DNA from: Acaryochloris marina S15
Lineage (GTDB): Bacteria; Cyanobacteriota; Cyanobacteriia; Thermosynechococcales; Thermosynechococcaceae
DNA length: 32,000 bases
NCBI RefSeq assembly: GCF_018336915.1
Contig: NZ_CP064923.1
Location: 5,490,001 to 5,522,000, forward strand
Direction: 5' to 3'
The position numbers and the translations under genes are program-made. The notes below the pieces were generated by a model. That model ran no database searches. It saw only the letters and a list, made by a program, of their open reading frames with translations, and was not told the origin of the DNA. Shown piece by piece: positions 3,362 to 23,460 of this stretch (its first letter is position 1; the number at the start of each line of letters is the position of its first letter).

Positions 3362-3510
3362 GTCAGTTAATTCATACCTGTTAAGACTTGTGCTTTCTAA
3401 GGTTCATTTTTTTGTATCCACCAATACAACAATCAACCGATAGACTTGATATTTCTTGTATACATACTCTATTCATCAAAAAACAATAATTCCTTAAAAA
3501 ATACTTGTTT

Positions 3511-3636
3511 CTAGGGTTCCGATTTGAGTTCCGTCCTTACTTAAATGCCTGGTCCAAGAGAAACAGCTAGCTGCTTTCATACCTGTTTTATACCGGTTGG
3601 CAGTGAGTGACACGGAGGGATAAAAGCCCGGGAGAA
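3511..3636 (+). promoter_or_regulatory. guanidine-I riboswitch aptamer (ykkC-yxkD motif, subtype 1)
   Basis: The three conserved ykkC blocks are present in the right order and spacing: CTAGGGTTCCG (3511-3521), GGTCCAAGAG (3551-3560) and ACACGGAGGGATAAAAGCCCGGGAGA (3610-3635). It sits in the 5' leader of the operon that starts at 3787. Confidence 0.9.
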
Positions 3637-3688
3637 TGAACATTAACGCCGTATCCGTTAATGGTTGTCTCCGCGGGTTTTGTGTTTT
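3626..3688 (+). terminator. riboswitch expression platform: intrinsic terminator overlapping the aptamer 3' strand
   Basis: GCCCGGGAGA (3626-3635) pairs with TCTCCGCGGG (3668-3677), with one bulged G. The inner stem is ATTAACG (3642-3648) / CGTTAAT (3656-3662). The U-rich tract TTTTGTGTTTT (3678-3688) follows. Confidence 0.7.
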
Positions 3689-3786: not shown

Positions 3787-4983
3787 ATGGCTGAAAATCC
3801 GACCTTTGGTCCTCCAAACTCTAATCCTGATTTTTCTTCCACCGAGGCCAATCGTGCCTTAGAAAAAGAAGCACAACTCCCCCTCACAGGCTGGCAACAA
3901 GAAGTCGATCGAGGATTAGAACTGGGCTTAGAAGCAGCAGCTAGCATCCGGGATCGCAGCATTCCTACCTTCTCACGAGGAGAACTGCCCCACTATGCAG
4001 GTATCAACACCTTTCTCAAAGCGCCTTACCTAGAAGATGTGCGTAAAGTCGGTGAGTACGATATTGCTGTTGTGGGCGTTCCCCATGACTCAGGCACCAC
4101 CTATCGTCCCGGCACACGCTTCGGTCCTCAGGGCATTCGTCGGATTTCAGCCCTCTATACCCCCTACAATTTCGAGATGGGCATCGATTTGCGGGAGCAG
4201 ATTACCCTCTGTGACGTGGGCGATATCTTCACTATCCCCGCCAACAACGAAAAATCCTTTGACCAAATCTCTAAAGGAATAGCCCATATCTTCAGTTCTG
4301 GGGCTTTTCCCATTATTTTAGGAGGTGATCACTCCATTGGATTCCCCACCGTTCGCGGCGTCTGCCGCCATTTGGGAGATAAGAAAGTCGGTATCATCCA
4401 CTTCGATCGCCATGTGGATACCCAAGAAACCGACCTAGATGAGCGCATGCATACCTGTCCTTGGTTTCATGCCACCAACATGGATAACGCTCCCGCTAAA
4501 AACCTGGTACAGCTAGGCATCGGTGGTTGGCAAGTGCCTCGCCAAGGGGTCAAGGTCTGCCGAGAGCGAGCCACTAATATCTTGACCGTCACTGACATTA
4601 CCGAAATGGGTCTAGATGCTGCCGTTGACTTCGCCCTAGAAAGAGCCTTGGACGGCACAGACTGTGTGTATATCAGTTTCGACATTGACTGTATTGATGC
4701 CGGATTTGTCCCCGGTACCGGCTGGCCAGAACCCGGTGGTCTCATGCCCCGAGAAGCGCTCTATATGCTCGGTAAAATCATTCGACAAGCGCCCGTCTGT
4801 GGCCTGGAAATTGTCGAAGTTTCGCCCCCCTATGACGTCAGCGATATGACCTCTCTGATGGCCACGCGGGTGATCTGCGATACCATGGCCCATCTGGTTC
4901 TCTCTGGACAACTGCCCCGTCAGCAAACACCCGACTATATTCACCCTGAAGCCAATATGGCAGTGGGTTCTGAGTGGGTTTAG
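3787..4983 (+). CDS. gdmH: arginase/agmatinase-family ureohydrolase; probable Ni-dependent guanidine hydrolase (GdmH/Sll1077-like). Pipelines would usually call it agmatinase SpeB.
   Basis: 398 aa. All arginase-fold metal-ligand motifs are present: ILGGDHSIGFP, IIHFDRHVDTQ and YISFDIDCIDAGFVPGTGWPEPGG. It is the first gene after a guanidine-I riboswitch and is followed directly by HypA/HypB-like genes. Confidence 0.85.
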   Translation: MAENPTFGPPNSNPDFSSTEANRALEKEAQLPLTGWQQEVDRGLELGLEAAASIRDRSIPTFSRGELPHYAGINTFLKAPYLEDVRKVGEYDIAVVGVPHDSGTTYRPGTRFGPQGIRRISALYTPYNFEMGIDLREQITLCDVGDIFTIPANNEKSFDQISKGIAHIFSSGAFPIILGGDHSIGFPTVRGVCRHLGDKKVGIIHFDRHVDTQETDLDERMHTCPWFHATNMDNAPAKNLVQLGIGGWQVPRQGVKVCRERATNILTVTDITEMGLDAAVDFALERALDGTDCVYISFDIDCIDAGFVPGTGWPEPGGLMPREALYMLGKIIRQAPVCGLEIVEVSPPYDVSDMTSLMATRVICDTMAHLVLSGQLPRQQTPDYIHPEANMAVGSEWV

Positions 4984-4986
4984 GCC

Positions 4987-5367
4987 ATGCATGAAACAGA
5001 CATGACCAAGGCCCTGATCATGACGGTCAAAGATTGGTACGACTCCCAACCCGAAGATCCAAAAATCACCAAAATTCATTTGGTTGTCGGTCGGTTTACC
5101 TGTGTTGAACCCGTCAGCTTGCAGTTCGCCTATGAAGTTCAAACCCGTGACACTTTCTTAGCCGGGACAGAACTGGTGATTCGAGAAACGCCTTTAATCG
5201 CCTTTTGTCACCCCTGCCAAAAAGAATATTCCCCAGCCATCGGCTTGCAGTATTCCTGTCCTGACTGTGGAACGCCGATGGAAGACATCCGGTCCGGTCG
5301 CGAACTCAAAATTGACCATATCGAATATTGTTCTGATTCAGCCCAAGCTTATGCACCAAACTGTTGA
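4987..5367 (+). CDS. hypA: HypA-like nickel metallochaperone (GhaA-type accessory protein)
   Basis: 126 aa. Has the N-terminal MHE nickel-binding motif and two CxxC pairs (CHPCQ, CPDCG) forming the zinc site. The ATG is 3 nt after the upstream stop codon. Confidence 0.85.
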
Positions 5368-6049
5368 CGCCGCCCTAGGCATTAACCTCTTACATGCCAA
5401 TCAAGAAGGGGCCAATCACAACCAAGCACATTTTGATGAATGGGGGGTGACCTGTTTCAACATTATGAGCAGCCCTGGTGCAGGAAAAACGGTGCTGTTG
5501 GAGAAAACCCTAGCGGCTCTCAGCCCAGAACTCAAACTGGCCGTCATCGAAGGCGACATGACCACCGAATTGGATGCCGATCGATTACGGGCTTACGATG
5601 TCCCCGTGGTGGCCATTAACACCGGGCGATCCTGTCACCTTGACGCCAAGATGGTCGCGGGTGGCATCCACCAATTGGAGCATTGCACTAATCCTAGTGA
5701 ACTGGATTTAGTGCTGGTAGAGAATGTCGGGAACCTCGTATGTCCGGCAGAGTTTGAAGTAGGAGAGCATGCCAAAGTGGCCCTACTCAGCGTGACAGAG
5801 GGGGAAGATAAGCCGCTGAAATATCCCGTGATGTTTCAAGCAGCCGATTGTTTATTGGTGACCAAGATAGATTTAGTTCCCTATCTCAATATTGACATTG
5901 AGCAAATCAGCCAGAATGTCCGTCAGCTCAATCCCCATGCCACGATTATTCCGGTATCTGCACAAACAGGAGCAGGGCTTGCTGAATGGTATGAATGGGT
6001 GCGTCAACAGGTCGCCCAGCCGAGTCGGACTGCAGTCGGTCGTCATTAG
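5351..6049 (+). CDS. hypB: HypB-like nickel-dependent GTPase (GhaB-type accessory protein)
   Basis: P-loop SSPGAGKT, metal/switch motifs GRSCHLDA and [12 protein letters not shown], and specificity motif TKIDL. I place the start at ATG 5351 ([10 protein letters not shown]...), which overlaps hypA by 17 nt. The track start at 5267 would add 28 residues read out of frame across hypA. Confidence 0.85.
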
Positions 6050-6076
6050 TTGTTTGTAAGCAGGTAAAAGACTTCT

Positions 6077-7105
6077 ATGAAGCGAAGAAATTTTCTATCC
6101 TTATGTTTGGTATTTTTCTGCAGTTTGCTGCTGACCGTCAGCTGTAGCTCCTCACCCGAGACGACAACCGACTCTTCTGTCGGCTCAGGGGAGCCAGTTG
6201 TGATTGGTTACAGTAACTGGGCGGGTTGGTGGCCTTGGGCCATTGCCGAGCAAGAAGGGCTATTTGAAAAAAATAAGGCCAATATCAAACTCAAATGGTT
6301 TGATAATTACACCACTTCAATGGAAGCCCTGGCAGCGGGTCAATTAGACGGCAATTGCCAAACCCTCAACGATACGATTTCCTTTGCCGGCAGTGCCACC
6401 AAGGGAGAAGTCGCGGTCCTAGTCAATGACAACTCTGCTGGTAATGACAAGATTATCGTTACGGCCGATATTAATAGTATTCAAGACTTGAAAGGTAAGA
6501 AAGTTGCCGTTGAAGAAGGAGTAGTGGACGACTTTTTGTTGACCTTAGCCTTGGAAGAAAACGGCATGAAGCGAGACGATGTGGAGATCGTGGGCTTGGA
6601 AACGGGTAAGGCCGTGACTGCTTTTGTGGCAGGTAAAGTGGATGCAGTCGGGGCATTTCCCCCGTTCTGGGCAACAGCGTTAAAGCGGGAAGGCAGTAAA
6701 GAGCTGATCTCGTCCAAAGAGTTTCCGGGTGCCATTCCAGACTTGCTCGTGGTGACCCAAGATTTAGTGGATAATCGCCCCGATCAAGTGCAGGCCCTGG
6801 TAGATACTTGGTTTGATATCTTAGCCTTCATAGATAAAAATCCCCAAAAGGCTGATGAAATTATGGCGAAGCGGGCCGGGGTCTCTCTGGAAGAGATGAA
6901 GCAATTCAAAGAAGGAACGCGCTTCTTCTCCCTAGAAGATAATCTGGAAGCATTTTCGGATGGTGAAGACATGAAGCATATGCCCTTTGCTGCCAAACGG
7001 ATGGCTAAGTTTATGGTGGATGTCGAATTCATTAAAGAAGCACCGGATTTAACCCAAGTGCTGGATGACCAGTTTGTTAAGGCCTATCAAGCCAAGCAAG
7101 CATAG
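6077..7105 (+). CDS. ABC transporter substrate-binding protein, NitT/TauT (NMT1/SsuA-like) family, probable lipoprotein
   Basis: 342 aa. Signal peptide ends in LLLTVSC-SS (lipobox-like Cys). The overall pattern (IGYSNWAGWWPW..., KGKKVAV..G) is typical of nitrate/sulfonate/taurine-type binding proteins. Confidence 0.8.
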   Translation: MKRRNFLSLCLVFFCSLLLTVSCSSSPETTTDSSVGSGEPVVIGYSNWAGWWPWAIAEQEGLFEKNKANIKLKWFDNYTTSMEALAAGQLDGNCQTLNDTISFAGSATKGEVAVLVNDNSAGNDKIIVTADINSIQDLKGKKVAVEEGVVDDFLLTLALEENGMKRDDVEIVGLETGKAVTAFVAGKVDAVGAFPPFWATALKREGSKELISSKEFPGAIPDLLVVTQDLVDNRPDQVQALVDTWFDILAFIDKNPQKADEIMAKRAGVSLEEMKQFKEGTRFFSLEDNLEAFSDGEDMKHMPFAAKRMAKFMVDVEFIKEAPDLTQVLDDQFVKAYQAKQA

Positions 7106-7173
7106 TTCCCTTCTATTCCTGGAGCTAGTTCGCTCCAGGAATACCAGATTAGTCATGTGTCTCTGCAGCGATT

Positions 7174-8019
7174 ATGACCTCCAACTCGTCAGTTCCCCCA
7201 CCCCAACCGAACCATCAGTCTGGTGGATTAAAACCCACTATTTTTTGGCGTATTGCTGAGGACATTCCAGGGAATCTCAAGTGGGCCTTAATGGTGACTT
7301 CCATCGTTCTTCCCTTCGGACTTTGGTGGGGAATCGCTAGCACTGGAGTCGTTAATTCCGACTTCTTGCCATCTCCTACCCAAGTGGGTCAAGCCTTACG
7401 CGATCTCTACTCTGATGGCTTGCTCGTCCATGATACGTTGATGAGCTGCTTTAGGGTTGGGGTAGGTTTTCTACTCGCTGCAATTGTTTCTGCGCCTGTT
7501 GGCATAGCGATGGGGACATTTACCAGTATTCGGTCCTTATTGGAACCGATTATGGGCATTGTTCGTTATATGCCAGCGCCCGCCTTTACGCCCCTGTTAC
7601 TGATCTATTTAGGGGTAGATGAACGACCCAAAATCGCCCTCATTTTTATCGGTACGGTGTTTTTCAACATCTTGATGGTGATGGATGCCGTCAAGTTTAT
7701 TCCCAAGGAATTGCTGGAAACAACTTATACCCTAGGGGGAAGACGTCACCAAGTGCTCTTCCAGGTGATTACTCCCTATGTGATTCCCAATATTCTGGAT
7801 GCCTTTCGTGTCAATATGGCAGCCTCTTGGAATTTAGTCGTGGTTGCTGAATTAATTGCTGCAGAAGAAGGCTTAGGGAAACGCATTGCCATAGCTGAAC
7901 AGTTTTTCAGGACTGATACTATTTTTGCCTGCCTCATTGTGTTGGGACTGATTGGGTTTGGTCTAGATTTATTATTCCGCTGGCTACAACGTGCTGTCTC
8001 TCCCTGGGCAATCGACTAA
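7174..8019 (+). CDS. ABC transporter permease, NitT/TauT family
   Basis: 281 aa and multi-pass hydrophobic. The EAA-like loop region (AEEGLGKRIAIAEQFF) is typical of BPD_transp_1 permeases. Confidence 0.85.
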   Translation: MTSNSSVPPPQPNHQSGGLKPTIFWRIAEDIPGNLKWALMVTSIVLPFGLWWGIASTGVVNSDFLPSPTQVGQALRDLYSDGLLVHDTLMSCFRVGVGFLLAAIVSAPVGIAMGTFTSIRSLLEPIMGIVRYMPAPAFTPLLLIYLGVDERPKIALIFIGTVFFNILMVMDAVKFIPKELLETTYTLGGRRHQVLFQVITPYVIPNILDAFRVNMAASWNLVVVAELIAAEEGLGKRIAIAEQFFRTDTIFACLIVLGLIGFGLDLLFRWLQRAVSPWAID

Positions 8020-8028
8020 CTCATCACT

Positions 8029-8805
8029 ATGCACTTAGAAGTTTCCCATCTGTATAAGCATTTCTCGACTCGCCAGGGGAAACTGCTCGTTCTCAAAGAT
8101 ATTAATCTGCACGTGGAGACGGGAGAGTTTGTCTGTGCTGTAGGGGCATCAGGATCTGGCAAAACCACACTTCTACGTATGATAGCGGGGCTAGACGCCT
8201 CTACCTCAGGCAAAATCATGGTCGATGGTCAGCCCGTGATTGGTCCGGGTGCCGATCGCGGCATGGTGTTTCAAAGTTACACCCTCTATCCCTGGTTGAC
8301 AGTTGCCAAAAATGTGGGATTTGGCTTAAAACTGCAGGGGGTTGCTAAGCCCCTGCGCGCTAAGCGGGTGGCTGAATATCTAGATGTGGTGGGATTGACC
8401 CAGTTTGCCGATGCTTATCCCAGAGAGTTGTCAGGGGGGATGAAGCAGCGAGTTGCCATTGCCCGAGCATTGGCCTCACAACCCAAAGTATTACTGATGG
8501 ATGAGCCGTTCGGAGCATTGGATGTGCAAACGAAAGAAACCATGCAGCAGTTTTTGCTGAATTTATGGCGACGAACCGGCACCAGCATCTTAATGATTAC
8601 CCATGACGTAGACGAAGCTATTTTCCTGTCACAGCGCATTTACGTGCTCACGGCTCGCCCTGGTTCGGTCCAGCGAGAGATCTCGATTAACCTACCGACG
8701 GAACGGACTTACGCCGTCAAACGTCAGCCCTTATTTCAAGACTATCGAGATGAAATCATGGATCTGTTGCGGGAAACCCCAGAACTCCATCCAGTGATAG
8801 AGTAA
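8029..8805 (+). CDS. ABC transporter ATP-binding protein, NitT/TauT family
   Basis: Walker A GASGSGKTT, signature LSGGMKQR, Walker B LLMDEPF, H-loop ITHD. The ATG is 9 nt after the permease stop. Confidence 0.9.
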   Translation: MHLEVSHLYKHFSTRQGKLLVLKDINLHVETGEFVCAVGASGSGKTTLLRMIAGLDASTSGKIMVDGQPVIGPGADRGMVFQSYTLYPWLTVAKNVGFGLKLQGVAKPLRAKRVAEYLDVVGLTQFADAYPRELSGGMKQRVAIARALASQPKVLLMDEPFGALDVQTKETMQQFLLNLWRRTGTSILMITHDVDEAIFLSQRIYVLTARPGSVQREISINLPTERTYAVKRQPLFQDYRDEIMDLLRETPELHPVIE

Positions 8806-8812
8806 GGCTCAA

Positions 8813-9343
8813 CTATCCAGGTTGCCGCTCTAGGGTGGCTTCCATCGTATTGAGAAGATAATGCTCGCTCATCATGCCGCTCGATAAACGATAGCTATTA
8901 TCGGCAATGCGATGAATCGTTTCAAAACCACTACGGCGATCGCGATCGCCTAATACCCAAAACCGCTGGACAATAGATTCGGGACCAATCCAGCCTTCCC
9001 CTTCTACTTGGCCCAATTGGCTATGTTTGAGGACGTAAGTATACCGCTGGTCGTTACTGCCTAAACGTCCCCGATACTGCATGATAATTTCTGAGGTACC
9101 TTGACGGGCCACCGCCGACTCTTCAGGAAACAAAAGCTTGGTCGCCATGGTAAACCAGCTATCACAGTTCCATGCCACCAGGGTGCGGCCATGGATGGCA
9201 ACGGGATCTTGGTTACGTTCCATCCAAGTCCCTTTGAAAGTCCATCGGCCCGCATCTAATAAGAAGGTGTGAGCCGCAGCGCCTTTTTTCTCTGGCATTT
9301 CGTTAATGTAGGTGAATCTTTGTCCTTCTCTTAGGATGCCCAT
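8813..9343 (-). CDS. hypothetical protein (176 aa), no motif recognised
   Basis: Clean ORF 17 nt downstream of anmK on the same strand. Soluble-looking composition. The alternative-frame ORFs here are shorter. Confidence 0.6.
   Translation of the reverse strand: MGILREGQRFTYINEMPEKKGAAAHTFLLDAGRWTFKGTWMERNQDPVAIHGRTLVAWNCDSWFTMATKLLFPEESAVARQGTSEIIMQYRGRLGSNDQRYTYVLKHSQLGQVEGEGWIGPESIVQRFWVLGDRDRRSGFETIHRIADNSYRLSSGMMSEHYLLNTMEATLERQPG
8936..8949. repeat. tandem overlapping HIP1 octamers (GCGATCGCGATCGC)
   Basis: Two overlapping copies of the cyanobacterial highly iterated palindrome GCGATCGC. Single copies recur throughout the window. Confidence 0.9.
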
Positions 9344-9360
9344 TGGGTCAATCGTCTGGA

Positions 9361-10500
9361 TCAGACGAGGTGTAATTCTCCCAAGAGAACAGGGCCTTTT
9401 GCCCCGGTCACTGTGGGGACATTACCAGGGATTTTCAGCTGCCGCCAATAGGCCAATACCGCAAATGCGATCGCTTCTTTGGCATCAGCACTCAACCCTA
9501 AATCATCCGCTGTCAGCACGGGGCTACTCCCCACACGCTGTTGCAGGCACTGCCGTAAATACCCATTACGACTACCGCCCCCACACAGAACCACCTGATC
9601 AGGCGGATGGGGCAAAAACTGGTCGTAGTTGTAAACGATGGTTGCTGCCGTAAAGTCCGTCAGGGTAGCGAGCATATCGGCTGGACTGAGCTGATAGAGT
9701 GCCGCTGTTTGTAAACAGGTCTGCAAATAATCGGGGCTAAACAACTCTCGCCCCGTAGATTTAGGAGGTGGCTCTAGGAAAAAAGGATGCCGCAGCCATT
9801 CCTCAATCAGGGGCTGACAAGGCGTCCCCTGGGCAGCCCAGGCCCCATCGGCATCGTAGGTCAGTTCTCCTTTAGAAAAGTGAGCAACAGCCAAATCCAT
9901 CAAAACATTGGCAGGGCCTGTGTCCCAGCCTTTGACACCGACCCCCAGTTGGTTCCCATCCGCTAAGGGGGGCAGATAGGTAACGTTGCCAATACCGCCC
10001 ACATTTTGCACACAGCGGTAGAACTCGGGATGGCTGAGTAAACAAATATCCAGTTTGGAGACGAGGGGAGCGCCCTGACCGCCTGCTGCCATATCAGCGA
10101 CGCGAAAATTACTGACCGTATTGATGCTGGTTTGATAGGCAATCACAGCTCCCCGCCCCAATTGGAGGGTATAGCCCAGATTGTCTTGCGGGGGACGATG
10201 GAACACGGTTTGGCCGTGGGACCCAATCAGTTCGGCGGTCGGCGTTGCATCTGCCTGAATGGCTTGGGCCGCTTGAGAAAATTGAGTTGCGATCCCATCA
10301 TCCAGTACTGCCACCTCTTCGATACTCAAAGGCTGTCCCGCGCAAACCGCTAGAATTTGATCTCGGAGGGCATCGGGATAGGGATAGGTCTGGGACGCAA
10401 TCAGATCGACCTGTAAGTCTAGTTCCTGGCCGGAAATATCAACGAGGGCGGCATCAATGCCATCAACGGAGGTACCGCTCATCAAACCAATTACACGCAT
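9361..10500 (-). CDS. anmK: anhydro-N-acetylmuramic acid kinase
   Basis: 379 aa. The N-terminus [22 protein letters not shown] and overall length are characteristic of AnmK. The start is 2 nt downstream of the kinase gene stop. Confidence 0.9.
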
Positions 10501-10502
10501 GC

Positions 10503-12938
10503 TTACCCTTCTCCCAAAGAACGTAGAACACTGAGAACGTCGTTGTAACTCCCCGTTCGGCCTTGTGCAGCATAGAGATCGGCTGCTTTTTTTAGATCCG
10601 CAATGGCTTCCTTGCGTTTGTTTTGCACCGAATAAAGCAAGCCCCGTTTATAGTAATCTTCAGCCGCATCTGGCTTAATTCGCAGGGCATCACTGAGATC
10701 GCTTAAAGCCCCATCTAAATCTTTGAGCTGGATCTTGGCACTGGCACGGTTAGAGTAAGCCGCTTGACTCCGCACCTCACTGTTGCGAGTGTCATTAATT
10801 TTGATCGTGCGCCCATAGTCTTGGATCGCCTTTTCATACTGCTTTAATCGCAGATAAATATTGCCCCGCACCGTATGTAGGGCAGCACTGCTGGGGTTAA
10901 TCCCTAAGCCTTTGTTGCAGTCTTCGAGGGCGCGCTGTAGTTCATTGAGGGAAAATAAGGCCCCACAACGATTATTGAGGACAAAGGGATCTTTAGGATT
11001 AATGGCAATGGCGCGATCATAATCTTTGAGTGCACCTTCAAAATCCGCTGGCTGACCTTGGTAGGCACGCAGTTCACCCCTCAGCAAATAGGCGTTGGTA
11101 GAGTTGGGATTAATCTTTAGAGCCTGATCAAAGGATTTACGAGCTTGCTCGATTTCACCCTGTTCATAGAAGACACCTCCCAGATTGGTATGGGCACGGG
11201 TGAGCTGAGGGTTAATGCTCAGAGCCTGATTGTAATCTGCGATCGCATCTTGTTTTTGATTCAACCTAGAGTTGGCATAGCCCCGACTCGTATAGTCTTT
11301 CGCCGTTCGTACTGACAGTTCTAGGGCGCGTTCCCAGTCTTGTTCTGCTCCATCTTGGTCCCCCAGAACCGAACGATAGCTACCTCGGTTCACATGGGCT
11401 GATAAATGATTGGCATCCGCTTGGATAGCCTTATCTAGTTCTTTGACCGCCGCTTCCAGCTTCCCCTGGACAAAAAATACAGAGCCTAAATTGAGATAGC
11501 CTTGGGCCTGGTTGGGTTGGAGACGAATGGCTTGACGATAATCGGCAATGGCCTCCTCATACTTACCCATTTCTACCTGGGCATCTCCCCGATGGTTATA
11601 AGTTTCCGCATCCTTGGAGTCGAGAGAAAGGGCTTCGTTATAGTCTGCGATCGCAGTTTGGTATTCCCCAGTGGCAAAGTGAATTTCGCCTCGTTCTCGA
11701 TAGGCCGCTGCGGTTTCTGGCTGCTGCTCTAACAAGGTATCGAACTGGGCGATGGCGTCCGGGTATTTTCCAATCTCACCATAGGTTTCGCCTAATTTAA
11801 GCGCTGCTTCGGTGTAATCATCTTTTAGCGCTAAGGCCTGTTCAAAATTCTCCGTGGCAGACCGCCAGTTCCCCGATTGGGCCGCCTGCTGACCCCAGAA
11901 ATAATGCCATTGGGGACGGAAGAGAAAAAAGAGACTTGTGGATGCGATCGCAACGCCACCCACCCCTAACCCAATCCACTTCAACCGCCGTTTAGGCTGC
12001 TGGGTCTGGAGCGCAGGCTCAGCCGGAGAGGGCTCAGGGACTGCTGGCGGAGGTGAAGGGGCTGCAGGAGCAACTTCATCTTCAGCCGAGGGATGGGAGA
12101 GCACCGTGCTGGCTTGAGCCACAGACTGTAATGCCGTTCGCATAGCTGCCACCGTGGCAAACCGATGTTTCGGATGGGGTTTAACCAGTTGATCCAGCAA
12201 ACTTCTAAAGGGGGAGCTCAGATGCTGGCAATCCTGCTTCCACAGCAATCGTCCCGTCGCACTATCCGTTTCAAACTGATCGGGGAACTTGCCCGTCAGC
12301 AAATAAATCGCCGTTAAACCCAAACTATATAGATCGCTGGCAAACGTAGGTCGCCCCGCTGCCTGCTCTCTGGGCATAAAGCCAAGGGTGCCAATTACAA
12401 TCGAGCGACTGGGCTGTCCTTGAGCATTGATTTGGGTAGCCATCACTTCCTTGACGGCACCAAAATCAATCAGACAAGGCTGTTGATCAGCATTACGAAC
12501 AATAATATTGTCGGGTTTAATATCTCGGTGAATAATGTTGTGGCCATGAATGTAATTGAGCACATTGATAATCTGATAAAGCAGCTTGATCACCTCTGCT
12601 TCATTCAGTGAGCCTTGGGCGGTGACAATTTCCGTGAGGGTCTGGCCTTCAATCCATTCCTGCACCAAATTAAATTGCCCAGTTTCTTCAAAGTAAGCAA
12701 ATAGATCGGGAATTTGAGGATGCCCTTGGCCAATTCGTTCTAAGATGGCCGCTTCTCGCTGAAATCGTTCTAAAACAATTTTCTGCACCCGATCATTGTT
12801 AAGCACAGGTTTGAGCTGTTTAATCACACAAAATCGCCGAGATGGCATTTGCTCATCTTCAGCTAAGAAGGTTTTACCGAATCCCCCTTCATTTAATGCC
12901 TTGAGGATACGATATCGGCCATTAACAAGTCCTACCAT
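10503..12938 (-). CDS. membrane-anchored Ser/Thr protein kinase with C-terminal TPR repeats
   Basis: Hanks kinase motifs: [32 protein letters not shown]. These are followed by a Pro-rich linker, one TM segment ([20 protein letters not shown]) and ~12 TPR-like repeats. Confidence 0.9.
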
Positions 12939-12991: not shown

Positions 12992-13876
12992 TCATGCCGA
13001 TAGGGTAACCTGCATTCGCTTCTGTTGCCGTAAATAGCCATGCAAGATTTCAGCATCCATACCGTGGAGCATCAGCCGAAAGCCAGCATGCAGCGTAATT
13101 AACGGAATACAGGGATGACGATTGTTGACTAAGCTCAAGGCCGTCGGATCTTGTAACAACTTGCTAATGTAAATGGCGATGGTTTCATCTAGCTGCAACG
13201 AATTGGTGGCCCGCCAAAAATCATGATCGGATAAAAACAAAGCATAGACTGGTGTATACGCCTCAATGGCAGATTGCAAATCCACAAAATTAGTCCATCG
13301 TTGGCATCCAGGATTGATCTCAAATTCTCCATCCGTAATCGCGTCAAAGTTGAGGCTTTGAGGGGCCTCTAGCGTCCGATTCTCAGCCTTGAGCTTTTGA
13401 TTCAACTCAATAATAAAGTTGTAAATATTCAAATCGTGAATCAGGAAGGTATTGGCCTTCAAATCTTCTAAGCAGGTGGGGCGCAAGGATTGGGTAGACG
13501 TAATCTCGACCCCAGCATTATCGGCAATAAACTTGAGAATCTCCGTCCCAATCACGAAATGCCGCAAAATCAGATAATTACTATCGGGGGTCACAAAGTA
13601 CTTCAACCCCCAATAAATAAGCTGATGCAGCAGCCGAGACGAGCTTAACCATTCGGGGATCACGATTCGTAGTAGCTTCACCACCACAATCATCAGCTTG
13701 GCCAACGGGCGCACAAAGGGCAAAAAGATCCGGCGGGAGCGGCTGTTGTGGCCCCTCAGCAATGCCCGCTTAGATTCATCGTGAAGGGGCAAACTGGCAT
13801 CCAAATAGAGCGCCAGCCAAGGATTGGGGTCTTTGATATTAATGATTTGTTGATCAAACTCTGTCTGCCAACTCAT
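12992..13876 (-). CDS. hypothetical protein (294 aa from the ATG), third gene of the KAS III / HDO operon
   Basis: ATG at 13876 shares its A with the upstream TGA (TGATG). The track start at 13879 is a TTG one codon earlier. I recognise no catalytic motif. There is one hydrophobic stretch (FLPFVRPLAKLMIVVVKLLRIVIP). Confidence 0.65.
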   Translation of the reverse strand: MSWQTEFDQQIINIKDPNPWLALYLDASLPLHDESKRALLRGHNSRSRRIFLPFVRPLAKLMIVVVKLLRIVIPEWLSSSRLLHQLIYWGLKYFVTPDSNYLILRHFVIGTEILKFIADNAGVEITSTQSLRPTCLEDLKANTFLIHDLNIYNFIIELNQKLKAENRTLEAPQSLNFDAITDGEFEINPGCQRWTNFVDLQSAIEAYTPVYALFLSDHDFWRATNSLQLDETIAIYISKLLQDPTALSLVNNRHPCIPLITLHAGFRLMLHGMDAEILHGYLRQQKRMQVTLSA

Positions 13877-14577
13877 CAATAATGTCCTAGTTCTTCTAGC
13901 TGTAAGAGATATAACCGAGCGGTAACTTTGGCGGTGCGGACAATCGCCTCATCCATTCCTGTTATATCCAAAATTGAGCTAGCCAGCAGATCTTCGAGTT
14001 CTTGCAGATGATCTTCATCATGGGCTGCATGATAGCGATAGAACTCTAGCTGATCTGGATCGGTGATTAAGGGGTTTTCGTCTAAGGCATTGGCAAAGGT
14101 TTGGGCGAACCGCTTTCCTAAGCCCTCGATCACAAACATGGCCCCCAACAGATCGAAGGGGTTGGGCTGAGATGCCCGTTGATACATCCAGGCTGAAAGC
14201 GCTTCGGACCCAATATTTTTGTGCGCCCCTATCAATTCGGCTTTTTGGCCCCCGGAGGCTAGATAACTTTTCTCCAGCATTTGATAGTCAAGATGTTCTG
14301 TGGCCGCATGGCGGATAAAGACAGAACGCTGGTCCAGATATGGCGCTGTAATCGAAGAGGCTGCTCGGCTAATCCAGCCGCTGCCTTCCACCACCTGCTG
14401 GTAATGATCGCTAATTAAGGTGAGATAATCTGCTAGCCTGAGCTGCTGCTGCATTGCTCGGGCGACAATCGGTACTTTTAACAACCGACTTTCAAAATCG
14501 GCCCATACCATCGTTAACTGGCGCAGCACTCGCTGGGACTGGGTGACGTTGCTGTGAAGTCGAGGTTGGGTTTGCAT
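13876..14577 (-). CDS. heme-oxygenase-like fold, iron-containing redox enzyme family protein (HDO/Haem_oxygenase_2-like)
   Basis: 233 aa and predicted all-helical. Candidate metal ligands are RHAATEH, VIEGLG and HAAHDEDH (H-x3-D-x2-H, as in CADD/UndA-type diiron enzymes). The start is 4 nt after the KAS III stop. Confidence 0.65.
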   Translation of the reverse strand: MQTQPRLHSNVTQSQRVLRQLTMVWADFESRLLKVPIVARAMQQQLRLADYLTLISDHYQQVVEGSGWISRAASSITAPYLDQRSVFIRHAATEHLDYQMLEKSYLASGGQKAELIGAHKNIGSEALSAWMYQRASQPNPFDLLGAMFVIEGLGKRFAQTFANALDENPLITDPDQLEFYRYHAAHDEDHLQELEDLLASSILDITGMDEAIVRTAKVTARLYLLQLEELGHY

Positions 14578-14581
14578 GAAA

Positions 14582-15706
14582 TTACACCACTGTTAAATGC
14601 ATAAAGGCCGCAATACAGCGCCCACTTTCGGGTACAAAGCAGAGGATCCGTTGTCCAGGCTGCAAAGACTGTTGCTGAACCAGCTCCTCTAGCATGATAA
14701 AGATGGAGGCCGTCCCGGTATTGCCATAGCGTTCTAGGTTATTGAACCATTTTTCTTCCGCAATCATGGCTCCTGTGCGAAGCAGCAATCGCTTCATCTC
14801 TTCGCCTAGGGAGTGGGAAGAATAATGGGGTAAAAAATAATCGATGGCATTGGGATCCAGATCGTATTTCTCTAGCAGCTCCAGATAGTAGCCAACCCAA
14901 ACCGGAAACATGGCGTAGAGAATATCAAAGTCTTGCTTAAGGGCAATGGCACCCGCTTCATAGGCCGCCTGGGGAGATTCATATAACCCCCATCCCAGAT
15001 CGTCCGTATTGCTTTTAGCCCCGGCATACATACAGGGTGGGAACCGGTCGGCAAAGGACTTAAACTGAATCCAATCAATCCGCAAGGACACTCCATCGGG
15101 CTTAGGATTGGGCTCTAAGACTACAGCTCCTGCCCCATCGGAGAGGGTCCATCGCAAGAACTCGATTTGTGGATCGGGCCTGGCATCTTGATCGTAAAAA
15201 GGCTGATAGACCTTAGGGCGAAACCAGCGGCTCGCAAATTCACTCCCGCTCGCGACTGCCAGCTGAGACTCGCTCACTTTGACATTGAGCCAGGCATTTT
15301 TAACCGCCATCAGACTGCTGGCACAAACACTCTGAAATGAAAAAATTGCTAGCGGTGGAATACCTAGCTCACCATGGACTGCACTCGCAAACCCTGGCAC
15401 CAGATAATCCCCTTGGGTGGTACTCGTTGCTAGCAGATCCACCTGTTCGGGCTGGCAACGAGCTTGTTTAAGAGCATCATGAATGGCATTCGCCGCCATC
15501 CCTGCGTTGGTATATCGGTAGCCACCTGCTGTATCTAGGGCGTAGAAGCGCTGCTTAATCCCATTTTTGCGCAAGATAGCGGATCCTAGGGTTGAGCTAC
15601 GCTTACTAATACTGCCGATGTACGCCGCCATATCCGCGTTGGCAACGGGCTCTCCTGGCAAAAATTTGCCGACTCCAGTGATGTAAACCTCTTGGCAAGG
15701 AGACAT
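14582..15706 (-). CDS. beta-ketoacyl-ACP synthase III (FabH)-like condensing enzyme
   Basis: Thiolase-fold KAS III pattern with a candidate Cys-His-Asn triad: FQSVCASS, FLPHYSSH, YGNTGTASI. I prefer ATG 15706 (MSPCQEVYITG...) over the track TTG at 15712. Confidence 0.85.
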   Translation of the reverse strand: MSPCQEVYITGVGKFLPGEPVANADMAAYIGSISKRSSTLGSAILRKNGIKQRFYALDTAGGYRYTNAGMAANAIHDALKQARCQPEQVDLLATSTTQGDYLVPGFASAVHGELGIPPLAIFSFQSVCASSLMAVKNAWLNVKVSESQLAVASGSEFASRWFRPKVYQPFYDQDARPDPQIEFLRWTLSDGAGAVVLEPNPKPDGVSLRIDWIQFKSFADRFPPCMYAGAKSNTDDLGWGLYESPQAAYEAGAIALKQDFDILYAMFPVWVGYYLELLEKYDLDPNAIDYFLPHYSSHSLGEEMKRLLLRTGAMIAEEKWFNNLERYGNTGTASIFIMLEELVQQQSLQPGQRILCFVPESGRCIAAFMHLTVV

Positions 15707-15714
15707 GGGCAACG

Positions 15715-15741
15715 CTGACTCAGGAGTCAGTCACAGGTGAC
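15715..15741. promoter_or_regulatory. two abutting palindromes directly upstream of the KAS III-like start codon
   Basis: CTGACTC-AG-GAGTCAG (15715-15730) is followed immediately by GTCAC-AG-GTGAC (15730-15741). Function unknown. Confidence 0.25.
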
Positions 15742-16266
15742 CGGTTCATCGTCGATGCGTTCGCAGCATCTACAGCTGAATCATAGCGCTTCTCTGGTTG
15801 ACTATAAGCCAAAGAATTGAATACATTGGCTCTAGACCTTGCATGTGCCTGAGAGCAGTAAACTAAAGATATTAAGACATTGCCTCTACCAGACTTTAGG
15901 CAAGTCATTGGTACTACTCGCTACATTTATGACCTCATGGGCTGTTGTATTGTCAAAAGATGGTGAAATACAGTCAATCGGCTAATTTCTCTAGCAAACG
16001 GTCAAATCCATACTTGTTAACAGATTTACCGATTAAAGCCTATAAGTTTTAGATCAAAATGGGCACACTACAGTCATCGGTGTTGATGGAGATTTGATAT
16101 CCAGGCTATTTGCAGCAATTGTCTGTCTTAGTCGTGTCCCAGCATACAGTGAATAGCAAGTTTAGCTTGCGATCTCAGCGGTCGGGGGAGCCTGCATTGA
16201 GTTGCAGTAGGCCATCGCTTTTTTCAGCAATAGAGTCACGTCCTCTTTCGAGATGTAAGTTTTGCA

Positions 16267-21729: not shown

Positions 21730-22021
21730 AGCTAGGGTTTATCCTCCCCAATATAATCCTCAACGTTCAACGGGTTAATCGATTCACACCTAGCTCACCA
21801 ACCCACCCATGCCTTTTGGCCCTGTCCCTCATCTGGATTAAAATCGAGGAACCGCTTACCTCGCTTCACCATCAGTAAACCCAGAAGGATGGGAATGAAG
21901 GGCCTAGGTTTGACAAATGGCCAAAGAATGCGAATCATAATCCCCAGAAGCTTTGACAAGTATCCGAGGAATACTGAGCTCGATTTGTCTCCGGCTTGTT
22001 TAGCTGACCTCCGTCAGCCCC

Positions 22022-23460
22022 GCTTTTGACCGCTTCGTTCCACTCACAGTCAAAAGCAGAATATAAGGAGCGTGACCGCAGGAAACATATTCTAGGGAGT
22101 AAAGCTACATTCCCTAAATTTGTTAAAATCAACTTATGCTCGTAATGAACTACCGATACAGGATCTACCCAAATTTTGAGCAAGAACAGCAAATGCTGAG
22201 CTGGCTTGAGACGTGCCGCAGGGTTTTTAACTATGCCCTGCGAGAACGTAAAGACTGGATAAATTCTCGGAAGTGTCCAGCAGATCGATGCTCTTTGCAG
22301 TCCGAATATATCGTTGCGGCTGATGCCCCTTACCCTAGCTATTACGCTCAGAAAAAAGGATTGGCAGTCGCAAAGAAAGAGAATAACTGGCTTAAAGCTG
22401 TCCATTCTCAAGTATTGCAAGAGGTCATTGGACAACTGGATGGGGCATTTACATCTATGAAGGAAAGAGGTCATGGCTTCCCACGCTTTAAGAAGTTTGG
22501 GCAGTATCGATCCTTTCTCTTTCCTCAATTCAAGAGCAGCCCCATCCAAGGTAGACAAATTAAGCTGCCCAAAATTGGGCTGATGCCCATTGTCTTCCAT
22601 CGGCAAATACCAGATGGTTTTGCGATTAAGACAGTGCGAGTCATTCGTAAGCATTCTGGGTGGTATATCTCCCTGTGCTTGGTGGCAGATGTGTCTATCC
22701 CAGAGGTGCCGCCTCACGGTCGGTCCATAGGTATAAACGTAGGGCTGAGCTATTTCCTGAGTACCAGTGATGGCGAACAGGTTGATAGACCTCGCTTTTT
22801 CGACAAACTTCACCGCAAGCTGGAATTGCTGCAACGATGTTTGAAGCGGAAGCAAAAACGGTCTAATAATCGTGCCAAGCTGATTCAGAGAATAGGGCGA
22901 GTCCATGAACAAATTGCGGCATCTCGGCTGGACTGGCAATTTAAGCTGGCTCATCACTTGTGTGACCAAGCTCAGATGATCTTTGCTGAGGATTTGGACT
23001 TCCGAATCATGGCAAAAGGCTTGTTGGGCAAACATACTCTTGATGCAGGGCTTGGGCAATTCCTGAATGTGGTTTTGCCTTGGGTTTGCTTCAAGCGTGG
23101 AGTTTACTATGCCAAGGTTGACCCTAATGGTACGTCTCAAGAATGCCCTGACTGTGGAGCCAGGGTAAAGAAAGACCTAAGTACGAGGATTCATGAGTGT
23201 CATGAGTGTGGGTCTGTAAAGCCTAGAGATGTTGCCAGTGGTCAAGTTATCAATGCCCGTGGTCTATCGGGTATTCAAACTGCAAGTGGACGGGATCTAT
23301 CGGGGTATCAGGAGACTGATGCTAGACAAGACCGAACGAAGCTTGAAGAACTCAAGAGTAATCTTGAGAAGCCCGCGCTCTATGCGTCAGCATGAGCGTC
23401 GGGAGAAGTCACACTCGCTTATTCTCTATTTCGTTGTCCACCCTCAACCTAAAGTGACTC
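22022..23460 (+). mobile_element. IS200/IS605-family (IS1341-like) element carrying tnpB only; ends not defined
   Basis: tnpB ORF with no tnpA nearby. A subterminal hairpin GCTTTTGAC (22022-22030) / GTCAAAAGC (22049-22057) lies ~80 nt upstream of the ATG. The structured 3' region extends to the next gene. Boundaries are approximate. Confidence 0.6.
22136..23395 (+). CDS. tnpB: IS200/IS605-family transposase accessory protein TnpB (RNA-guided nuclease family), RuvC-I Asp replaced by Asn
   Basis: 419 aa. Typical N-terminus YRYRIYPNFEQEQQMLSWLETCRRVFNYAL, RuvC-II IFAEDL, zinc ribbon CPDCG...CHECG and RuvC-III PRDVASGQVI. The RuvC-I motif reads GINVGL (AAC at 22736-22738) where GIDxG is expected. 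Confidence 0.85.
   Translation: MLVMNYRYRIYPNFEQEQQMLSWLETCRRVFNYALRERKDWINSRKCPADRCSLQSEYIVAADAPYPSYYAQKKGLAVAKKENNWLKAVHSQVLQEVIGQLDGAFTSMKERGHGFPRFKKFGQYRSFLFPQFKSSPIQGRQIKLPKIGLMPIVFHRQIPDGFAIKTVRVIRKHSGWYISLCLVADVSIPEVPPHGRSIGINVGLSYFLSTSDGEQVDRPRFFDKLHRKLELLQRCLKRKQKRSNNRAKLIQRIGRVHEQIAASRLDWQFKLAHHLCDQAQMIFAEDLDFRIMAKGLLGKHTLDAGLGQFLNVVLPWVCFKRGVYYAKVDPNGTSQECPDCGARVKKDLSTRIHECHECGSVKPRDVASGQVINARGLSGIQTASGRDLSGYQETDARQDRTKLEELKSNLEKPALYASA

Follow-up and report, generated by a model that had tools for sequence, protein, structure and literature searches.

Two questions are raised by the ATP-binding cassette (ABC) importer encoded at 6077-8805 in a 32-kb stretch of Acaryochloris marina S15 genome DNA (the window): which compound it takes up, and whether its expression is governed by the guanidine-I riboswitch that lies farther upstream. 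Open reading frames (ORFs) were checked with Pfam and NCBIfam profiles. On the + strand the locus runs NtcA box, guanidine-I riboswitch with terminator, gdmH, ghaA, ghaB, gimA, gimB and gimC. The last three genes are very probably orthologous to those for GimABC, the cyanobacterial importer that takes up guanidine with high affinity at the expense of ATP. This assignment was made because GimA identity reaches 70-73%, the riboswitch-gdmH-ghaA-ghaB-gimABC order is shared, five pocket residues are kept, and the NtcA box is perfect.

Identity of the importer

The reference system was characterized by Itzenhauser et al. (PNAS 2025; PMC12704784) at the sll1077-sll1082 locus of Synechocystis sp. PCC 6803. 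GimABC corresponds to Sll1080-Sll1082, and GimA (Sll1080) bound guanidine with a Kd of 97 ± 51 nM in isothermal titration calorimetry (ITC). With nitrate or 2 mM guanidine, growth of the gimA and gimB disruptants was normal; it was slow at 0.5 mM, and at 0.1 mM guanidine there was no growth and no guanidine depletion. Docking to an AlphaFold model of Sll1080 assigned the pocket to W59, W62 and F205 (cation-pi or stacking contacts) together with D135 and D233 (PMC12704784). For this clade, the initial annotation's remark that the substrates of such importers are rarely demonstrated is thus outdated (Synechocystis GimABC, PMC12704784).

In the window, the binding protein, permease and ATPase that had been annotated as a complete set were all recovered from ORFs, Pfam and NCBIfam domains, and motifs. 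The gimA gene (6077..7105, +) encodes a predicted guanidine-binding lipoprotein of 342 amino acids (aa), with matches to PF13379 (9e-22), PF09084 (1.7e-16) and TIGR01728 (281.5 bits). The product of gimB (7174..8019, +; 281 aa) is the permease, a type I ABC importer membrane subunit (PF00528, BPD_transp_1, 2.8e-23), with an EAA loop, ETTYTLGGRRHQVLFQVITP, from residue 182 and several hydrophobic segments. The ATP-binding subunit is encoded by gimC (8029..8805, +; 258 aa; PF00005 2.1e-32), and contains Walker A GASGSGKT at residue 39, LSGGM at 134, Walker B VLLMDEP at 154 and an H-loop, ITHD, at 190. An NMT1-like binding protein, an EAA-loop permease and an ATPase with Walker A, Walker B and signature motifs identify the set as a NitT/TauT-type ABC importer. 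Four of the proteins were looked up and gave exact matches in A. marina and Acaryochloris sp. 'Moss Beach' records, with generic annotation only.

The signal peptide of GimA, MKRRNFLSLCLVFFCSLLLTVSC, carries a twin-arginine-like RRNFL motif followed by the lipobox LTVSC, and the lipobox cysteine (C23) was invariant in an alignment of 22 homologues; the term lipoprotein, as first annotated for the 6077-7105 product, is therefore justified by the sequence. Identity was 70-71% to GimA of S. salina LEGE 00031 (L053) over residues 1-335/342, and 73% to a protein from a Synechocystis sp. metagenome bin (P0140). The Sll1080 pocket residues W59, W62, D135, F205 and D233 fall on W48, W51, D124, F194 and D222 of the window GimA at a constant offset of 11, and all five were invariant in the 22-homologue alignment, with no indels between them. 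For the AlphaFold model of GimA (predicted local distance difference test 87.2, predicted TM-score 0.81), the nearest solved folds were TauA and SsuA at ~20% identity (Foldseek E 3e-19 to 2e-17, TM 0.65-0.8); no GimA-like solved structure was found in the PDB, where the best matches were likewise TauA/SsuA (6ssy, 2x26).

Relatives of the binding protein were scanned in one genome per species, which gave 378 loci. The best 80, all cyanobacterial, were read by tblastn with the six window proteins and with a covariance model, R1 (27 riboswitch copies); a regular-expression search for the riboswitch had missed 6 loci, which were recovered by R1. Among these best 80 of the 378 loci, the order riboswitch-gdmH-ghaA-ghaB-gimA-gimB-gimC recurs, and the riboswitch, where found, precedes gdmH in every case and in none lies immediately upstream of gimA. 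Synteny was counted where the sequence upstream of gimA reached 4.5 kb or more (59 loci): gdmH lies 5' of gimA in 40 of them, and the riboswitch is also present in 31. A free-standing gimABC was seen in 14 of the 59, where the 8 kb upstream contain none of gdmH, ghaB and riboswitch (L003, L004, L007, L010, L014, L022, L026, L035, L036, L042, L045, L049, L057 and L073). Eight further loci have gdmH-ghaAB-gimABC with no detectable guanidine-I riboswitch (L012, L063, L067, L069-L072 and L080).

In Synechocystis and in the window alike, the ABC trio directly follows gdmH-ghaA-ghaB, gdmH is preceded by an NtcA site and a guanidine-I riboswitch, and GimA has the five pocket residues and a lipoprotein signal. 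Binding of guanidine by the lipoprotein, as had been proposed from the gene context, is supported by ITC of the Synechocystis orthologue Sll1080 together with the orthology of the window genes. Import of guanidine for nitrogen assimilation is supported in the same way, by analogy with the Synechocystis gimA and gimB disruptants, by gdmH synteny and by the NtcA box.

Judging by its signal peptide and lipobox, GimA would cross the plasma membrane and be held on its outer face by a lipid anchor at C23. Conservation of the Sll1080 residues suggests that guanidinium is captured in the inter-lobe pocket, where W48, W51 and F194 would engage it by cation-pi or stacking interactions, with charge supplied by D124 and D222. 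The cation would then be handed to the GimB permease, with transport powered by the GimC ATPase; as is general for ABC importers, a GimB2-GimC2 stoichiometry is expected. Imported guanidine would be hydrolysed by GdmH, which would obtain its Ni2+ from GhaA and GhaB, and the products, urea and ammonium, would feed nitrogen assimilation; the hydrolysis has been demonstrated for the Synechocystis orthologue.

The guanidine-importer reading is supported but not new: experiments on the orthologue have established it, and the system has been described as widespread among cyanobacteria; the pathway figure of a 2025 review already includes this importer (PMC12186494). Earlier publications cover guanidine as a cyanobacterial nitrogen source, the GdmH pathway, the riboswitch and the importer alike, and little new biology is added here. 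The gene-context reading, made without tools, agreed with the 2025 experimental paper, and the Acaryochloris genes, now labelled 'ABC transporter substrate-binding protein / permease / ATP-binding protein', can be re-annotated as gimABC. What may be new is the regulatory wiring in Acaryochloris (a fused operon vs. separate promoters in Synechocystis) and its mosaic divergence; the hint of a cation-type aromatic/acidic pocket in many 'SsuA_fam' binding proteins is also of interest.

Promoters, riboswitch and divergence of the locus

A perfect NtcA box, GTATCCACCAATAC (GTA-N8-TAC; 3414..3427, +), lies 73 nucleotides (nt) 5' of the riboswitch aptamer and is one of two perfect boxes in the window (3414-3427 and 15911-15924). 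By analogy with Synechocystis, where NtcA binding 5' of gdmH was detected by chromatin immunoprecipitation sequencing and electrophoretic mobility shift assay (PMC12704784), it probably marks a gdmH promoter activated by nitrogen limitation. The match is perfect in the window, whereas only partial matches have been described for Synechocystis (PMC12704784). Its position 5' of the riboswitch fits the use of guanidine as a nitrogen source; if the box is active, the guanidine operon would be subject to two gates, one set by nitrogen status and the other by guanidine.

The guanidine-I (ykkC) riboswitch aptamer (3500..3636, +) matched RF00442 over the full model length (71.4 bits vs. a gathering threshold of 63, E 5.3e-11), and scored 107 bits with R1. 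It leads into an expression platform with an intrinsic terminator (3623..3688, +), whose hairpin is contained in both the minimum free energy and centroid folds. The segment AAAGCCCGGGAGA (3623-3635) pairs with UCUCC-G-CGGGUUUU (3668-3681), enclosing an inner hairpin at 3641-3663, and the U-tract extends to 3688. C3627-C3629 (CCC) belong both to aptamer helix P3 and to the 5' arm of the terminator, so that termination should be blocked when guanidine is bound. In the classic arrangement, guanidine-I riboswitches are ON switches in which the ligand prevents termination, and from its arrangement of aptamer and terminator the window riboswitch should be one as well.

The initial annotation had placed the transporter in the same riboswitch-controlled transcription unit. 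Of this, the riboswitch itself and the six colinear + strand genes stand, but control of the transporter is not established, and its co-transcription with gdmH-ghaAB from the riboswitch-gated promoter is only plausible. The latter was considered because gdmH to gimC all lie on the + strand, the junctions are short (3, -17 (overlap), 27, 68 and 9 nt), and no convincing terminator or sigma-70-like promoter was seen between the six genes, although counts in that scan were within the shuffle range, which makes it uninformative. The 27-nt gap between ghaB and gimA is kept in A. marina MBIC11017. Against co-control, gimA is separated from the upstream riboswitch by 2.4 kb and three genes. The doubt over riboswitch control comes from Synechocystis, in which gimABC runs from its own NtcA-dependent promoter, as determined with a green fluorescent protein reporter and a point mutant; it forms a separate transcript (TU794), and the riboswitch is carried by gdmH-ghaAB (TU795) (PMC12704784).

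A serious contender, to which we give somewhat less than an even chance, is that the window gimABC follows Synechocystis: most of its transcription would start at a dedicated nitrogen-regulated promoter, here within the 3' part of ghaB, and the riboswitch would have no control over the importer. The separate, NtcA-dependent TU794 (PMC12704784) is its precedent, and the consistent absence of the riboswitch from the position directly 5' of gimA in the best 80 loci agrees with it. The 14 of 59 loci that have gimABC with no gdmH or riboswitch within 8 kb argue that the cassette can be expressed autonomously. An importer that brings the inducer in also makes more sense if it is present before guanidine is sensed. 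The junction itself argues the other way: the ghaB-gimA gap is just 27 nt, neither a sigma-70-like promoter nor a terminator was found there, and no perfect NtcA box (GTA-N8-TAC) occurs within 250 nt 5' of gimA in the window. Neither of the two one-mismatch boxes (5954 and 5989) is conserved in other Acaryochloris, and matches of this kind occur at the chance rate (79 found vs. 79.6 expected). When the comparison was extended to 77 loci, 6 had a perfect box within 250 nt 5' of gimA (7 boxes) vs. ~5 expected; the search for an internal NtcA promoter 5' of gimA thus gave no signal above chance in the window or in the 77 loci. The NtcA motif of Synechocystis gimA is itself a partial match, so that a sequence scan could miss such a box in the window.

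In Synechocystis the NtcA-dependent gimABC promoter sits in an intergenic region of ~85 nt or more, whereas in the window the gap is 27 nt with no recognizable box; the window transporter may therefore depend on read-through. Expression would probably begin at the NtcA-activated promoter (box 3414-3427), gated by the riboswitch and terminator (3500-3688), and would reach gimABC by read-through from the gdmH promoter, from an internal promoter inside ghaB, or by both routes. In its strict form, in which the importer has no promoter of its own and is made only by read-through from the gdmH promoter with its NtcA box and guanidine-I gate, and in which the gimA-gimB segment was swapped by recombination, the proposal is rather unlikely. 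If true, guanidine uptake would be induced by guanidine in an all-or-none circuit with positive feedback, unlike the independently transcribed gimABC of Synechocystis.

The swapped segment was proposed from comparison with A. marina MBIC11017, with which the window is colinear at ~83% nucleotide identity. Divergence was scanned in 300-nt windows, with 6000-8700 set against 7900-10700 of the MBIC11017 locus (L002). Identity was 0.86-0.89 over gdmH-ghaB, 0.67-0.74 in the fully aligning windows of 6300-8400, and 0.82-0.87 downstream; the low-identity stretch comprises gimA, gimB and the 5' part of gimC, and most of 6900-7500 failed to align. At four-fold degenerate sites, identity was 0.34 for gimA, 0.33 for gimB and 0.52 for gimC, with 0.48-0.63 for eight flanking genes. 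Since these sites have also diverged in gimA and gimB, the pattern suggests replacement of the gimA-gimB segment by a deeper allele through recombination in one lineage, not relaxed constraint alone; the putative breakpoints lie near 6000-6300 and 8100-8700. In neighbor-joining trees, the Acaryochloris sequences still group together.

Alternative substrates and related families

Several points weigh against the assignment of the window genes to GimABC. Orthology was argued through the S. salina and metagenome-bin proteins and through residue spacing, not through the Sll1080 sequence itself, and GimA exceeds the threshold of TIGR01728, the NCBIfam 'SsuA_fam' subfamily for aliphatic sulfonates (281.5 vs. 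163.5 bits). Within the genus Acaryochloris, gimA and gimB are unusually diverged. Biochemistry is available for Synechocystis GimABC, whereas the Acaryochloris proteins are known here from sequence alone. The ITC in the main text of PMC12704784 covers guanidine only.

This last point would leave room for a physiological substrate that is a different but related small nitrogen compound (urea, methylguanidine or some other substituted guanidine), with guanidine as one of several ligands, and the strong divergence of gimA and gimB between Acaryochloris species could be read in the same way. We regard this as improbable: all five pocket residues are invariant, gimA shows tight linkage to a hydrolase and a riboswitch that are both specific for guanidine, and the orthologue has a nanomolar Kd for guanidine, which at 0.1 mM is no longer used when the orthologue is lost. 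A partial likeness to TIGR03427 has also been counted in favor of a related compound. This model was the second-best NCBIfam match of GimA, at 156.2 bits, far under the equivalog cut-off of 333.9, and membership was rejected. TIGR03427 belongs to proteobacterial urea/guanidine-carboxylase operons and is likewise an NMT1-like ABC importer binding protein in guanidine-I-regulated guanidine catabolism; the partner pathway differs, being guanidine carboxylase for TIGR03427 and the guanidine hydrolase GdmH for GimA.

An importer of aliphatic sulfonate, taurine or nitrate (NitT/TauT) that merely adjoins the guanidine genes, as the automatic annotation would have it, is extremely unlikely, since the TIGR01728 score and the nearest solved structures (TauA, SsuA) are set against failure of every equivalog-level model, including TauA (TIGR01729, 60.2 vs. 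304.25), SsuA (NF008588, 58.6 vs. 299) and SaoX (51.7 vs. 300), and of NF008553 (45.4 vs. 490), identity of just ~20% to TauA and SsuA, an N-lobe tryptophan cluster (SNWAGWWPW aromatic motif) that SsuA does not have, gdmH synteny in 40/59 loci, and experimental guanidine binding by the orthologue. Bicarbonate was rejected along with these substrates. The 'aliphatic sulfonate' annotations arise because GimA passes only the broad subfamily model TIGR01728.

The TauABC and SsuABC systems of E. coli share the binding-protein fold and the permease and ATPase families of GimABC, and differ in ligand, which is a sulfonate for them and a cation for GimABC. In hidden Markov model alignments, TauA shares with GimA only the C-lobe acidic and aromatic positions, with Glu aligned to D124, Trp to F194 and Asp to D222; the alignments begin after the W48 and W51 columns, where TauA is consequently unreadable. 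In SsuA of E. coli, W48 and W51 are matched by a gap and a Ser. The SMR exporters Gdx/SugE share the ligand and often the riboswitch class with GimABC and have no sequence relationship to it: they are proton-coupled and serve detoxification, whereas GimABC is a binding-protein-dependent, ATP-driven importer that serves assimilation.

Distant homologues of GimA (P0167-P0316) were also aligned. At 26-54% identity, most of 118 full-length representatives keep W-[W/Y/F]-D-[W/Y/F]-D at the pocket columns. Ten were sampled against NCBIfam, and TIGR01728 'SsuA_fam' was the best match in all ten; 5 passed, and 5 scored 155-161 bits vs. the cut-off of 163.5. Many proteins annotated as 'SsuA_fam' sulfonate-binding may be small-cation binders, which would make the mis-annotation widespread.

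Neighboring genes and other features of the window

Upstream of gimA, gdmH (3787..4983, +) encodes a predicted Ni2+-dependent guanidine hydrolase of the arginase family (PF00491 1.2e-77), annotated as 'agmatinase family protein'. Its product scored under the NCBIfam agmatinase cut-offs (168.6 vs. 174.3; 206.8 vs. 302), and is 84% identical to S. salina GdmH and 96% identical to GdmH of A. marina MBIC11017. Next to it lies ghaA (4987..5367, +), for a HypA-like Ni metallochaperone for GdmH (PF01155 1.3e-29; TIGR00100 112.3 bits vs. a cut-off of 88.1), followed by ghaB (5351..6049, +), for a HypB-like GTPase for Ni insertion (TIGR00073 310.2 bits vs. a cut-off of 121.2). The start of ghaB is probably ATG 5351 (MHQTVD...), not GTG 5267, which lies inside ghaA; it was moved because S. 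salina ghaB begins MHQSID..., and the TIGR00073 alignment begins at residue 36 of the long ORF from GTG 5267. The resulting 17-nt overlap with the end of ghaA suggests translational coupling.

Downstream, the unit is bounded by a convergent ORF (8813-9343, -; 176 aa) and then by anmK. The convergent ORF is separated from gimC by 7 nt between the stop codons. Its product had no Pfam or NCBIfam match; at 91% identity in A. marina MBIC11017, it is probably a real, conserved gene.

Elsewhere in the window, the second perfect NtcA box (GTACTACTCGCTAC, 15911-15924) lies just upstream of a minus-strand cluster (12992-15908). This comprises a 62-aa ORF and genes at 14582-15712 (KAS-III-like protein), 13876-14577 (haem-oxygenase-like iron enzyme) and 12992-13879 (DUF6999 protein), and may be a nitrogen-regulated operon. 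A tRNA scan of the 32 kb found none. A 401-aa ORF at 21935-23140 (-), for which there was no family match, is probably spurious; it lies opposite a TnpB / IS605 OrfB-type gene (22136-23395, +) with HTH_OrfB_IS605, OrfB_IS605 and Cas12f1-like TNB domains.

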